A stretch of DNA of 28,755 nucleotides, from positions 1 through 28,755 of the IMG/VR virus record IMGVR_UViG_3300020727_000063. The stretch is one strand, 5' to 3'. How positions within the stretch are numbered: the first letter of the stretch is position 1; each line of letters opens with the position of its first letter. The translations under genes were made by a program, and so were the position numbers. Of the stretch, positions 6,113 through 17,094 are shown in pieces. The notes beneath the pieces were generated by a model. The model was not told the DNA's origin and searched no databases. It saw only the letters and a list, made by a program, of their open reading frames with translations. This DNA is from a virus (Duplodnaviria > Caudoviricetes).

Positions 6113-7852
6113 ATGGCAAATAATTTGCTAACCATTTCCAAGATCACTAACGAAGCATTGATGGTCTTGGAAAACGAATTAACATTTACATCAGAAGTAG
6201 ATCGTAACTATGATGATCAATTCGCTGTGGTATAAAGCCTGCCTCAGTTTTTACTGTGGGTCTTATATTTGAGGTGGTAAGATCGGTAACACAGTAAACG
6301 TCCGTAAAAAGAGTTAGGTGTGCGGACGAAAAAGTTTCTCTGATTGACTTGGAGTCCCAGAAGTGGGTAACAAGGGGCAAGCGAAAGCAGCCTGAACGAC
6401 TAAGTGAGAAGCCCCGAAAGGGATGCGATAGTCTGAACTAGGATATAACTAAAGAAGTCCTAGAGTGCGATTCGAAGAAGTTGCACCGCCATTGAAAAAT
6501 GGTCAGTAAGTCGAAAGACTGAAAGTAACAGAATGAAACCTGGACGCTTTATTGGAACTACAGGGCCAGCCCTGAACGTAGAAGATTTCAATGAAACTTC
6601 TGTGCCTGTAACTTTGTCAACACAGTTCCATGTGGATAAACGTATGTCCACATATATCCACTAAGGATATTGGCAAAATTTCTTCTGATTGACTTGGAAG
6701 CCCAGAAGTGGGCGACAGGGCGCAAGCAAGGCAACTGTGCAGCGTGAACGACTAAGTGAAGAAACCCTGAAATGGGATGCGATAGTCTGAACATTGGTAT
6801 AACTTTATAAGAAACCGATGAGAGCGACCTGAAGCGGAAGCTCCACTACAGAACACCGTAGGGGTAACAGAATGACACAATTTACAACACAAGATTTGGC
6901 ATTGTCTTTAGATATGTTCTCTGATCGTGTATTGAAGCCTGCTGTAGCTGCTATCGCCAACAAGATTGACCGTGATGGTACTTTGCAAGCTGCTAACAAC
7001 ACAGCTAACATCGTTGGTACTGCTGGTACGCCCCCAACAGGTTTAATTACCTATTTAACGGCTGCTGCTTACCTTGACTCTGAAGGCGCACCTCGTGATG
7101 GTCGTAGATCATGTATCGTTGAGCCGTTCACTTCCGCTACTATTGTTGACAGCTTGAAAGGCCTATTTGTGCCACAAGAAGCTATTGGCGAACAGTATCG
7201 TAAAGGACTTATGGGTCGGGATTCCGCCGGGATGAACTGGAAAATGGATCAAAACGTGGTAGCTCACCAATTTGGTAGCTTTGCTGGTTCTGCAACTATT
7301 ACTGGTTCAAGCGGTTTCTTGACAAGTGGTTGGGCTTCTAGCTCTAACATCACTTTGACATTAACTTCTGGCGTTAGCTTAAATCAAGGCGATACATTTA
7401 CAATCGCTGGCGTTTATGCAGTTAACCCACAAAACCGTCAAGCCTATGGTTCAAACAAGTTGCGTAACTTTGTAGTTAATACAGCAGTTAGCGGTTCAGG
7501 TGGTACTATTTCTGTAAACGTAAGCCCTGCGGTTATTACTGCTGGTCAGTTCCAGAACGTATCTATTCCTACTGCTCTGTCAACAGCTACAGTTAACTTC
7601 TTTAATCAATCTGGTACTGTTTCCCCACAAAACATCATCATGCACCGCAATGCGTTTACTCTAGCAGTAGCCGATCTTGAGTTGCCAGAGGGTGTTCACT
7701 TTGCAGGTCGTGCAAGCGACAAGGAAATCGGTCTGTCAATGCGTGTAGTTCGTCAATACACTATTAACAATGACTCTATTCCTACACGTCTTGACGTTCT
7801 GTATGGTTGGGCTAATTTGTATCCTGAACTCGCTTGCCGTGTTGCAGCTTAA
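6113..7852 (+). CDS. Major capsid protein, P22 gp5-like, spliced: join(6113..6231,6272..6305,6536..6637,6875..7852), 410 aa
   Basis: SD AAGGA and ATG 6113. Joined exons (119+34+102+978=1233 nt) read continuously: MANNLLTISKITNEALMVLENELTFTSEVDRNYDDQFAVV|GGKIGNTVNVR|KPGRFIGTTGPALNVEDFNETSVPVTLSTQFHVD|TQFTTQDLALSLDMFSDRVLKPA...RLDVLYGWANLYPELACRVAA. This is a typical P22-coat-family sequence. Confidence 0.92.
6232..6271 (+). other. 40-nt intervening sequence in the capsid gene; putative core-less group I-type mini-intron
   Basis: Introduces an in-frame TAA (6233) and a frameshift. Removing 6232-6271 restores GT|A GGT GGT AAG. The 5' exon ends in U and the insert ends in G. GCCUCAGU (6241-6248) pairs with the 5' exon with U.G at the junction, and GCCU (6237-6240) pairs with the 3' exon AGGU. 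Confidence 0.7.
6306..6535 (+). ncRNA. Group I intron, 230 nt, no ORF
   Basis: P1: CGUCCGU exon with GCGGACG (6322-6328), U.G at the splice site. P10: UUAGGUGU with AAACCUGG. P3: GUUUCUC with GAGAAGC. P4: CUUG/CAAG. P5: CCCA-GAAG-UGGG. P7: GACUA (6398-6402) with UAGUC (6429-6433). P8: CCC-GAAA-GGG. P9: CUAGGA/UCCUAG. Terminal G at 6535. Removal restores VNVR|KPGRF. Confidence 0.93.
6638..6874 (+). ncRNA. Group I intron, 237 nt, no ORF
   Basis: P1: AUGUGGAU exon with GUCCACAU (6646-6653), U.G at the splice site. P2: AUAUCC/GGAUAU. P3: UUUCUUC with GAAGAAA. P5: GCCCA-GAAG-UGGGC. P7: GACUA (6750-6754) with UAGUC (6783-6787). P8: CCC/GGG. P9: CAUUGGU/ACCGAUG. Terminal G at 6874. Removal restores FHVD|TQFTT. 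Confidence 0.93.
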
Positions 7853-16450: not shown

Positions 16451-16487
16451 TGATATAATAAAGATTCTAACAAAGGAGTCTTATCAT
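16451..16487 (+). promoter_or_regulatory. Extended -10 promoter plus RBS-sequestering hairpin upstream of the HNH gene
   Basis: TGaTATAAT at 16451-16459. Stem AAGATTCT (16461-16468) pairs with GGAGTCTT (16475-16482) and covers the SD AAGGAG (16473-16478). Confidence 0.65.
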
Positions 16488-17094
16488 AAAAACACTAGCA
16501 GAACTAAAAGCAGAAAAATTAGAAGTAAACAAAGCAATAAAAAGATTAAAAGATAACGAAGCATACGCAAGAAAAGTAAACAGAGAAATAGGTGCGCCAG
16601 GAAAACCAGCAAACACTCCTGAAGTTTTATGGAGCAAAGTTGATAAACGTAGCGAAAATGAATGTTGGAATTGGAAAGGTTTTATAAATCATGATGGTTA
16701 TGGAAGGACTTGGATTAATGACAAAGGCTACTATGCTCACAGAGTCATTTATTCGCTTGCTTATCCAAACACAATTAACCTTAGTGCGCCTAAATTTACA
16801 GATAATTCAGGATTTCTTTTACACACTTGCGACAACCCTTCTTGTTGCAATCCAAAACATTTATGGGTCGGCACTCATGCTGACAATATGGCTGATAAAG
16901 TTGCTAAAGGTAGACAAAAAAGATTTCCACAAGATTCTGGCCCACGTTGCAAACTTACAATGGATCAAGCTAGAGAAGTTCGAAAACTTAGGAAAAATGG
17001 CATGACTGTTCCACAATTAATGGAAAAATTTGAATTAAGTCGTGCAAGCATAAAAACCTTGTTGCGTGGTGATTCATACAAGGAAAGCGAGTAA
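16486..17094 (+). CDS. Free-standing HNH homing endonuclease, about 202 aa, probable ATA start (ORF track gives only the last 68 aa)
   Basis: Frame is open from 16471: ...LWSKVDKRSENECWNWKG..DGYGRTW..YYAHRVIY..LLHTCDNPSCCNPKHLWVGTHADNMADKVAKGR, then an HTH-like KLTMDQAREVR..SRASIKTLLRG. There is no in-frame ATG/GTG/TTG before 16888. ATA lies 7 nt after AAGGAG. Confidence 0.85.
   Translation: MKTLAELKAEKLEVNKAIKRLKDNEAYARKVNREIGAPGKPANTPEVLWSKVDKRSENECWNWKGFINHDGYGRTWINDKGYYAHRVIYSLAYPNTINLSAPKFTDNSGFLLHTCDNPSCCNPKHLWVGTHADNMADKVAKGRQKRFPQDSGPRCKLTMDQAREVRKLRKNGMTVPQLMEKFELSRASIKTLLRGDSYKESE

Follow-up and report, generated by a model that had tools for sequence, protein, structure and literature searches.

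A candidate core-less mini-intron in a phage capsid gene, probably spliced by the group I intron next to it

Architecture of the interrupted capsid gene

The window, by which we mean the whole stretch of DNA analysed (28,755 nucleotides from a virus of the Caudoviricetes), carries a P22-type major capsid gene, the features of which are collected in Table 1. From the ATG at 6113 the frame runs to ...DQFAVV and is halted by TAA 6233-6235; deletion of 6232-6271 (40 nt), 6306-6535 and 6638-6874 yields an ORF of 410 aa. The product is a P22-type coat protein with relatives in the PDB, and over residues 1-410 it is 100% identical to the product of uninterrupted alleles (L003, L004, L029), which bears out the original prediction of a frame break at TAA 6233 that is rescued by removing 6232-6271. 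Only two 40-nt deletions, 6232-6271 and 6233-6272, restore the ...AVVGGKI... of the homologues, with the same product. The former alone leaves a U before the cut and a G at the end, and this singles out the proposed junction, U6231/G6271.

Table 1. Coordinates of the capsid gene and of the elements that interrupt it
Feature	Position in window	Strand	Remarks
Exon 1, P22-type major capsid gene	6113..6231	+	Last 8 nt form the P1a 5' strand, ending in U6231
Core-less mini-intron, 40 nt (candidate)	6232..6271	+	In-frame TAA 6233-6235; ends ...UUG, omega-G 6271
P10a guide	6237..6240	+	Partner 6272-6275
P1a guide	6241..6248	+	G6241 wobble with U6231; invariant U.U at position 4
Tethering helix Px, 5' strand	6250..6258	+	Partner 6290-6298
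Px extension, 5' strand	6259..6266	+	Partner 6277-6284; minimum-energy fold
Micro-exon, 34 nt (GGKIGNTVNVR)	6272..6305	+	P10a target and Px 3' strand (6290-6298)
Neighbour (intron 2), full ORF-less group I intron without P2	6306..6535	+
Exon 3	6536..6637	+
Intron 3, second full group I intron, with P2	6638..6874	+
Exon 4 to stop codon	6875..7852	+

The neighbour displays the features of a group I intron: a P3/P7 pseudoknot, P4-P6, P8 and a conserved P7. Using helix names taken from the established group I consensus, its P1 (P1b) guide lies at 6322-6328 and its P7 strands at 6396-6402 and 6429-6434, with a predicted G-site pair G6398-C6433; the guide reaches the core via a short A-rich linker. 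In the family of this intron (40 members), 97.8% of 1115 cells are paired and 14 pairs have changed on both sides; the P3 pseudoknot covaries, while P7 is invariant. The insert itself possesses the group I hallmarks of a P1 with a U.G wobble, a terminal omega-G and a P10. It had been predicted to share its geometry with both full introns: the guide pairings hold, but identity with both introns does not, as intron 2 lacks P2 and intron 3 has it, and the P10 of both contains mismatches. A promoter and terminator scan returned nothing above chance near the insert, and an Rfam search of the whole window at E-values up to 1 gave no match, even to the two full introns.

Pairing of the insert with its flanks

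Two helices of the original prediction were found as claimed. P1 (P1a) brings together GCCUCAGU at 6241-6248 and GCUGUGGU at 6224-6231; 7 of the 8 positions are paired, position 4 being a U.U mismatch, and the wobble at the cut is U6231.G6241 (pairing is predicted with probabilities of 0.91-1.0). P10 (P10a) pairs GCCU with AGGU. A third helix, Px, had been missed: it joins 6250-6258 to 6290-6298 and is extended by 6259-6266 pairing with 6277-6284. The 3' strand of Px abuts the P1 of the neighbour, such that Px stops exactly where P1b starts, residues 6299-6305 of the micro-exon being the 5' strand of P1b. The extension, which was judged by eye from the sequences of the variants and is uncounted, occurs only in 40-41-nt variants and puts the 3' splice site in a 10-nt loop.

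These helices are maintained across the variants of the insert, of which 23 are distinct, many rows resampling the same phage populations. In 22 distinct variants, 571 of 572 cells of P1, P10 and Px are paired (99.8%) and 6 pairs (31 cells) are altered on both sides, counts that take no account of relatedness among the variants; none of 500 shuffles reaches this pairing level. When the partners were slid by 1-3 columns, 33-48% of cells paired, and an exon-swap control gave 0/5000 for each of P1, P10 and Px. The U.G at the 5' splice site is present in 22/22 variants, with two P1 pairs changed on both sides, positions 1-4 of P10 are paired in 23/23 (five pair types occur at position 4 in the 22-variant set), and the terminal UG is found in 23/23. 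The folding energy of 6222-6339 is unremarkable (58 of 1000 insert shuffles fold as well), and hence the case rests on comparison. At the level of sequence and covariation, it is established that the insert pairs with the two exon ends through P1a and P10a and with the micro-exon through Px.

A P3-P7 core with a guanosine-binding site is absent from the insert, its 32-41 nt being used by the guide, Px and the two ends; all conserved bases are taken by P1a, P10a, Px and the terminal UG. In this genome, the family model matches 6329-6536 and 6674-6875 only, with no core in the insert, in agreement with the earlier statement that there is no room for P3-P9. The insert lacks the core that defines every family considered, and it recurs at unrelated sites with one layout.

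Distribution at the capsid site

The exact insert and junction are present in 18 viral contigs. A scan whose query named the exons only retrieved 44 viral contigs, every one of them with a 32-41-nt insert at this site, preceded by U and ending in UG. The P7 motif of the neighbour follows 120-122 nt on in 40 of these carriers, the full intron lying 34 nt downstream of the insert, and the other four contigs end 39-115 nt on, within the first bases of the neighbour. In metagenomes, the core is present in 25/28 stretches, the remaining three ending too early. The reverse scan returned 64 stretches with an intron of the 5' type of the neighbour: long-loop introns at the capsid site are accompanied by the insert in 48/48 cases and short-loop introns in 0/11, and 5 of the 64 introns sit in other genes. 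Short inserts with a U before and a G at the end, and with covarying guides, are thus found at the capsid site only before a full intron, as anticipated. The spacing between insert and neighbour is only 34 nt, and physical linkage could partly explain their co-occurrence.

Insert lengths of 32, 33, 34, 40 and 41 represent all three frames, and an in-frame stop is found in 72/72 rows; removal must therefore be exact. At least 50 viral contigs carry the insert. They are scattered over the capsid tree, on which 20 changes are counted for 155 rows, supported branches forcing no fewer than 12 of these, and insert, micro-exon and neighbour appear to travel between phages as one cassette. Many carriers are without intron 3, so this intron is not required for the mini-intron. 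In G005, a complete relative genome that carries the insert (35,664 bp, 100% complete), the family model, which is sequence-only and could miss a core of another group I subgroup, finds a single core, that of the neighbour. Together, these observations narrow the source of the putatively borrowed core, which had been proposed to be the intron 34 nt downstream or an excised intron, to the intron 34 nt downstream.

A search for an ancestral full intron bearing the guide of the insert yielded six hits, all attributable to chance; the pattern (exact guide plus a P4 motif within 40 nt) is strict, which leaves the absence of such an intron unproven. The nearest full intron in the capsid gene lies 3 nt upstream and has a different guide (L062, L150, L169). 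All carriers are uncultured assemblies. Three records of cultured or annotated phages matched, among them MW202520, and in the two examined the insert is absent: MW202674 has an intron at the intron-3 site only, and in Roseobacter phage CRP-118 the ribonucleotide reductase gene houses a member of the family, the frame being open up to it.

The same layout at other loci

A homology-free scan for P1 plus P10, covering 153 intron 5' ends, gave as its top new matches L116 (46 nt), L118 (40 nt) and L120 (53 nt), loci in other genes whose frame opens once the inserts are removed; at the L118/L120 site, insert-free homologues read YG-TY. Px, which the scan does not use, has 9-11 consecutive pairs in 12/12 frame-breaking rows, compared to at most 5 in 13 other candidates beside P2-less introns. 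As they lack Px, these 13 lower-scoring candidates were discarded, their reading frames having been assessed by visual inspection. In each of the four site types that share the layout, Px directly adjoins P1b, and the neighbours at all such loci are without P2, a helix borne by introns that are common in the same capsid gene.

A second type of insert measures 11-12 nt (L367, L384). The scan is blind to this type and chose the wrong neighbour P1 for several known carriers (rows L002, L143, L255), including the type found in the window, and it therefore undercounts. Among 24 loci of the genome collection it revealed no convincing insert.

RNA evidence

Four of 13 small-share RNA runs were examined, and in three of them (X1, X2 and X6, from three studies) we found a contig that precisely skips the equivalent of 6232-6271 as well as the neighbour. 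The evidence consists of assembled contigs, not raw reads, and of a relative in which 4 of the 40 insert bases differ. The depth of the joined contig is 13.5 (X1), 6.5 (X2) and 15.2 (X6), alongside neighbour-retaining contigs at a depth of 2-2.8. Of 21 listed differences, the joined contig shares 20 with the L083 carrier lineage, whose exact difference count (12 changes, 6 gaps) recurs in the retained-intron contig of X1. An intermediate from which the insert is removed and in which the neighbour is kept was not seen among the RNA contigs, and run X8 contained only an insert-free relative with a different junction, which is evidence neither way.

The joined junction that the original prediction expected in metatranscriptomes is thus present in RNA contigs, but a transcribed insert-free allele could also explain it. 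L448 (IMG/VR, 3,018 bp) has the joined form and a profile identical to that of the RNA contigs; should L448 turn out to be DNA, it would represent an insert-free allele, from which the RNA could have been transcribed.

Proposed mechanism and alternative explanations

We consider it likely, on the comparative evidence, that the core of the neighbour 34 nt downstream acts in cis and excises the insert as a core-less intron of group I type, Px with the micro-exon being predicted to tether the two. The comparative test supports the earlier proposal of a natural, non-autonomous intron that would borrow a neighbouring core. Px and P1b would stack on the micro-exon strand that they share, and P1a and P1b, hinged at one point next to the A-rich linker, could each dock in the single active site. 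P1a would dock at the outset, whereupon free guanosine would attack after U6231; P10a would then place G6271 in the G-site, so that exons 1 and 2 would be joined and a 41-nt RNA released. Afterwards, Px would be lost, P1b would dock and the neighbour would excise itself. Exon skipping would be blocked by P10a, because the guide fits the start of the micro-exon and not that of exon 3.

Splicing in trans, either by the excised neighbour or by the core of another transcript, with Px serving fold stability or timing, seems unlikely. The co-occurrence of the core and the covariation of P1 and P10 suit it equally well, a trans route would also save transcripts whose neighbour had spliced first, and engineered cores work in trans, according to the accessible text of PMC6155759 and PMC4094466. 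Nevertheless, the tethering helix favours cis over trans: trans action does not need the abutment of Px and P1b, which is found in all four site types. Furthermore, the core in carriers is always at a short, fixed distance downstream and never elsewhere only, and all such neighbours lack P2 even though P2-bearing introns are common in the same gene. Removal from RNA by host or phage proteins (nuclease plus ligase, or a protein-assisted reaction), of which the group I signals would be leftovers, must be regarded as very improbable. RNA contigs do reveal the joined product only, not the chemistry, and the available part of a study on lichen fungi reports that host machinery removes degenerate, non-self-splicing group I introns (10.1101/2021.05.01.442275). 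Yet in 22/22 variants the U.G at the cut, the terminal UG and P10 either do not vary or covary, they recur at unrelated sites, and the strict one-way dependence on a neighbouring core would be left unexplained. To our knowledge, bacterial machinery of this kind is not known.

Programmed translational bypass of the T4 gene 60 type can be accorded scant probability. It would fit the stop codon directly after the last codon of exon 1 (GTA TAA, 6230-6235 in the window) and the similar size, and it has a phage precedent (PMC5009743, available sections). However, the landing position before the resumed frame is TGA in 72/72 rows and does not match the take-off codon, no GTA or GTG lies within two codons of it, P10 covariation is given no reason, and the joined form is seen in RNA contigs; with inserts in three frames and no matched codon, bypass and frameshifting were rejected. 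That the insert is a minimal ribozyme able to splice itself, an ability claimed for PaSSU, a 67-nt intron of Phialophora, is extremely improbable. A small intron of P1, P7 and P10 was reported to splice in vitro with the help of exon sequence (PMC3160393, in its accessible part), but here all conserved bases are already spent, no P7-like G-site is present, the family model matches no core in the insert, and the insert is never seen in the absence of a neighbour. There is next to no likelihood that the insert arose by misassembly or is a dead sequence left behind by a deletion in defective phages, a reading that is largely refuted. The carriers are indeed all uncultured assemblies, with no insert-bearing cultured phage among the matches opened; against this stand the presence of the insert in at least 50 contigs of viruses, the compensatory changes among its 23 variants, intact exons, a scattered distribution over the capsid tree and the existence of joined RNA contigs, and no full intron with the guide of the insert was found (6/6 hits by chance). 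Neither misassembly nor a remnant confined to one genome, both raised in the original prediction, agrees with these data.

Significance and relation to known systems

Beyond the window, we lean towards a widespread class of non-autonomous 'passenger' introns in phages: guide-plus-tether RNAs of 11-53 nt, at several sites and in at least two capsid families, that would be removed by the ribozyme of the next intron, one core running two complete splicing cycles per transcript in a set order; in the 11-12-nt version, the guide would be handed to the exon. Group I introns are understood as self-contained, each with its own core for removal. If true, our proposal would mean that an intron has naturally been divided between an enzyme used in common and substrates without a core of their own; a single ribozyme would be able to serve two introns in vivo, and introns could be reduced to mere substrates. 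Such a step often features in ideas on how spliceosome-like systems arose, and in the literature searched it has so far been shown with engineered ribozymes only. With ~430 nt in all and compensatory variants supplied by nature, the system lends itself to a single in vitro experiment. In practice, essential genes of a phage appear disrupted when they contain such inserts, and Rfam finds neither the inserts nor their neighbours. Tools for excising RNA precisely could also be modelled on this layout, in which the insert carries the guide and is tethered to the exon. In the literature that we searched, mostly outside subscription papers and supplements, we found no description of a natural intron that lacks a core and relies on that of an adjacent intron, and term look-ups in the available text of PMC3679873, PMC3590771 and PMC3073962 gave nothing relevant. 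Supplements of intron surveys may list such inserts.

The T4 introns of td, nrdB and sunY are examples of self-splicing phage group I introns. Like these, the insert has a U.G at the 5' splice site, an internal guide forming P1 and P10, a terminal G after U, and an A-rich start with an in-frame stop; unlike them, it has no P3-P9 core or G-site, forms an extra helix with the downstream exon and is found only beside a full intron. In organelles, a split (trans-spliced) intron reassembles a single core that serves a single junction, and a twintron contains one complete intron inside another. The parts of these systems likewise cooperate by base pairing or splice in a required order, whereas in the capsid gene one core would serve two tandem junctions with a micro-exon kept between them.

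Engineered group I cores excise internal segments via P1, P9.0 and P10, with reported lengths of up to 28 nt for TES and 100 nt for the spliceozyme (PMC6155759, PMC4094466, available text). Going by these descriptions, the likeness is that a core would cut out a foreign internal segment and join its flanks by means of P1 and P10. The engineered systems do not occur in nature and work in trans, and their guide is part of the ribozyme, with the substrate on a separate RNA; the insert does not have this arrangement, as its guide is on the excised segment and the core lies on the same transcript, 34 nt downstream, and must later splice itself. The gap of T4 gene 60, as presented in the accessible part of PMC5009743, remains part of the mRNA, matched codons allowing it to be bypassed. 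The insert shares with it a stop right after the take-off codon, but a matching landing codon is absent and the splice-site helices covary. PaSSU-type fungal rDNA introns come close in layout: P1a, P10a and Px have counterparts in their P1, their P10 and a helix that the middle of the intron forms with the 3' exon (PMC3160393, accessible part). As described there, that type resides in eukaryotic SSU rRNA at one main site, has a claimed P7 of its own and claimed self-splicing, and ends in U, with no adjacent full intron invoked. The insert of the window has neither its own P7 or G-site nor a terminal U, and does not lie in eukaryotic SSU rRNA; the phage inserts are shorter (32-53 nt, and 11-12 nt in the second type), end in G, lack P7 and are tied to a neighbour.

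The capsid gene and its three interruptions

The window derives from an uncultured P22-like phage (28,755 bp, 81% complete), in which the frame of the capsid gene is broken three times. Once the three segments are deleted by script, the gene encodes a 410-aa protein with 100% identity to the products of three uninterrupted alleles (L003, L004 and L029), and the L003 product has matches among solved gene 5 coat proteins. For the first deletion, homologues fix a single product, and placement with a U before the insert and a G at its end gives exactly the 40 nt whose removal had been predicted to restore the frame. Both pairings ascribed to this insert in the original prediction are also present: P1a, with the end of exon 1 (7 of 8 pairs, with a U.G at the cut), and P10a, with the start of the micro-exon (4 of 4 pairs).

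Rfam 15 detected neither of the two long inserts in the window. With helix names taken from the established group I consensus, P3, P4, P5, P6, P7 and P8 are paired in 97.8% of 1115 cells across 40 members of their intron family, with 14 pairs changed on both sides and P7 invariant. By this pairing, both are real group I cores despite the Rfam result.

The insert-free alleles encoding the identical protein differ from the window by one base in exon 1, six in the micro-exon, 12 in exon 3, none in 6899-6978 and 12 in 7157-7257. This clustering around the introns looks like co-conversion, though the last block differs too.

Features of the capsid gene region, and inserts and introns at other loci
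Feature	Location	Length (nt)	Micro-exon (nt)	Remarks
Endonuclease-like ORFs	277-846; 16471-17094			free-standing; one with NUMOD3 motif, the other with HNH motif
Capsid gene start	6113
Insert	6232-6271	40
Micro-exon	6272-6305
Neighbouring intron (intron 2)	6306-6535			ORF-less
Exon 3	6536-6637
Intron 3	6638-6874
Px	6250-6258 with 6290-6298			stops where P1b starts (6299)
Px extension, 40-nt form	6259-6266 with 6277-6284			predicted fold; 3' splice site left in a 10-nt loop
P1a position 4	6228/6244			U.U mismatch
Neighbour's P10	6316-6321/6536-6541			mismatch at position 2 in the window
L116 insert	L116:1041-1086	46	33	near end of another gene
L118 insert	minus strand	40	26	same site as L120, different neighbour
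L120 insert	minus strand	53	48	same site as L118, different neighbour
Second insert type, shorter form	L367, L370	11		U before, UG at end
Second insert type, longer form	L384, L385, L400, L401, L419, L420	12		U before, UG at end
Intron of phage CRP-118 (L468)	OR420741.1, about 35,054-35,270			unannotated, P2-less

A family of inserts at the capsid site

The exact insert junction is present in 18 viral contigs. An exon-only scan, which named two flanking exon motifs separated by 16-46 bases, yielded 44 stretches, each of them with an insert at the capsid site (40 nt, n = 28; 34 nt, n = 10; 32 nt, n = 4; 33 nt and 41 nt, n = 1 each). Metagenome contigs scanned by guide supplied 28 further rows, which overlap the viral set and include one (L292) of the window's length. 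A scan by the neighbour's 5' type added six viral contigs. Many of these rows represent the same populations resampled, and they reduce to 23 distinct variants. An in-frame stop, a preceding U and a terminal UG occur in all 72 rows of the exon-only and metagenome scans; the insert lengths span all three frames, which excludes read-through by any fixed frameshift.

On an exon-sequence tree of 155 rows, the insert requires 20 gains or losses (shuffled mean, 32), at least 12 of them forced by supported branches. This distribution fits a cassette that may move or recombine between phages, a reading limited by phage mosaicism. The capsid gene has at least 10 intron insertion sites, and three loci (L062, L150 and L169) bear, 3 nt upstream of the mini-intron site, a full intron with P2 and its own guide, never together with the insert.

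Pairing and covariation

Besides the predicted P1 and P10, which were borne out, the analysis added a third helix, Px, predicted to tether the insert to the micro-exon. Across 22 distinct variants, P1a, P10a, Px and the neighbour's own P1 (P1b) are paired in 571 of 572 cells, in counts that ignore relatedness. Six pairs and 31 cells are changed on both sides, a level reached in none of 500 shuffles, and partners slid out of register pair in 33-48% of cells. P1 position 6 occurs in three Watson-Crick forms, P10 position 4 in five pair types and Px position 3 in four. When an insert is set between the exons of another variant, every helix score drops (0 of 5000 permutations as high, relatedness again ignored). 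The regional folding energy is by itself ordinary (58 of 1000 shuffles). The P1a mismatch is invariant in 23 of 23 variants.

Association with the neighbouring intron

The original prediction had proposed, as a check, to look for covarying short inserts that occur only alongside full introns, and the comparison bears it out. The P7 motif of the neighbour lies 120-122 nt downstream in 40 of the 44 exon-defined stretches, and the other four end within the neighbour's first bases. The insert accompanies all 48 long-loop introns at the capsid site (47 by script, L363 by eye) and none of the 11 short-loop introns there; five of 64 matches to the neighbour-type intron are in other genes. Part of this co-occurrence could be due to linkage, the two elements lying 34 nt apart. 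Intron 3 is missing from many carriers. In G005, a carrier genome rated 100% complete, the neighbour is the sole family-model match; G006 and G007 have one such match each, G006 also with a second, bare motif match unscored by the model.

The same layout at other sites

A homology-free scan examined 153 intron 5' ends for a P10-plus-P1 guide lying upstream; three new loci (L116, L118 and L120), each from one contig, came out at the top beside the known ones. The frame opens on removal of each insert, and insert-free homologues read straight through. The L120 gene belongs to a capsid family, its segments matching major head protein phrog_1357 in PHROGs; that of L116 had no family match. Px, absent from the scan criteria, forms 9-11 consecutive pairs in each of the 12 rows whose frame is broken (no more than 58 of 20,000 shuffles per row); in 13 other candidates it reaches five at best. 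No neighbour of an insert has a P2, and the distance between the guide G and P3 is constant at 12 nt. P2-less introns without an insert also exist, including seven loci at the site of L120's neighbour, and the dependence, of insert on neighbour, is therefore one-way.

A second insert type, of 11 or 12 nt, was found in eight contigs at another P22-type capsid site, 14 nt upstream of the first. A full P2-less intron, itself at another site, lies 38 nt downstream in all eight. For this type, known from two variants, the predicted P1 guide forms eight pairs with a U.G at the cut and lies, like a short hairpin, inside the micro-exon; the 12-nt form is in frame, yet contains a stop.

The wider intron family, of roughly 190-280 nt (including both long inserts, L100-L227 and L424-L447), is found chiefly in phage capsid genes, with further members in genome bins of prokaryotes. 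In the cultured Roseobacter phage CRP-118, a member divides the gene for ribonucleotide reductase, which is annotated there in two pieces, and has no mini-insert upstream; the phage is a ready laboratory source of the P2-less core type. In the deposited phage genome MW202674.1 (L467), the capsid annotation consists of two CDS plus a hypothetical protein, and the interruption is an intron at the site of the window's intron 3. Either endonuclease-like ORF of the window could be a mobiliser of the ORF-less capsid introns; the HNH-motif ORF has no ATG, GTG or TTG near the start of its open frame.

RNA contigs

Junction sequences in metatranscriptomes, which the original prediction had proposed as a check, were sought in assembled contigs from four of 13 listed runs (all 13 with small shares); the matching contigs belong to a relative. 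Three runs (X1, X2 and X6) each contain a contig that skips exactly the insert plus the neighbour, at depths of 13.5, 6.5 and 15.2, and also contigs retaining the neighbour, at depths of 2-2.8. The joined contig agrees with the carrier lineage L083 at 20 of 21 listed differences (12 of 21 for the best insert-free locus compared), and its junction is in none of 146 insert-free rows among the 60 commonest junctions listed. In X1, the intron-retaining contig runs from within the micro-exon through the intron into exon 3 and has exactly as many differences as that lineage. A mixture of spliced mRNA and its precursor would give this picture. When the junction was searched for, one IMG/VR record, L448 (3,018 bp), proved to have the same joined form and profile; it extends from the scaffold gene to the second gene beyond the capsid and, apart from the two exact deletions, equals carrier L280 in its first 1,016 bases. 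L448 could derive from RNA or represent a DNA allele without the insert, and because of the latter possibility the evidence for precise splicing in this relative is suggestive, not decisive.

Proposed mechanism and alternatives

The sequences establish P1a, P10a, Px, P1b, the missing P2 and the constant presence of the neighbour. They support, and sharpen, the proposal of a core-less intron borrowing a neighbouring core: the mini-intron is probably spliced in cis by the neighbour. Px and P1b, which share the micro-exon strand, would stack; the P1a guide would then have its 3' end next to the P1b-P3 linker, and P1a would be tethered to the core much like P1b. The core would first dock P1a and cut after U6231 with free guanosine; G6271 would then enter its G-site, aided by P10a, and exon 1 would be joined to the micro-exon. 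P1b would dock next, and the neighbour would splice itself out. This order matters because a neighbour that left first would strand the insert, unless it acts in trans. The P1a mismatch or that in the neighbour's P10 could tune the order.

We consider excision in trans by a group I core unlikely. Removal by a protein-based route is considerably less probable, and ribosome bypass slightly less so again, the matched codons of the T4 gene 60 type being absent at the insert. Self-splicing of the insert is very improbable, as is a dead remnant or artefact.

An origin of the mini-intron by deletion of a core is plausible; a search for an ancestral full intron, which required the exact guide and a P4 motif within 40 nt, gave none. 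By eye, insert positions 6237-6266 read as two blocks, each the reverse complement of part of the spliced exons but arranged in exchanged order (junction guide, then micro-exon match), and may have arisen by template switching.

Comparison with known systems

In fungal rDNA, putative group I introns of 56-81 nt are described that form P1 and P10, pair with the 3' exon through a further helix, and reportedly keep P7 and self-splice (PMC3160393). Degenerate introns of lichens are stated to be removed by host machinery (10.1101/2021.05.01.442275). The T4 gene 60 gap, possibly a degenerate group I intron, is bypassed via matched codons (PMC5009743); the capsid insert has none. Nowhere in the searchable literature, largely open-access main texts, was a naturally occurring core-less intron found that relies on the core of the intron next to it. 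Engineered trans-excision ribozymes and spliceozymes show that such chemistry is possible, with the guide there carried by the ribozyme (PMC6155759, PMC4094466). The insert resembles the substrate portion of a group I intron; the core that defines the family is missing from it.
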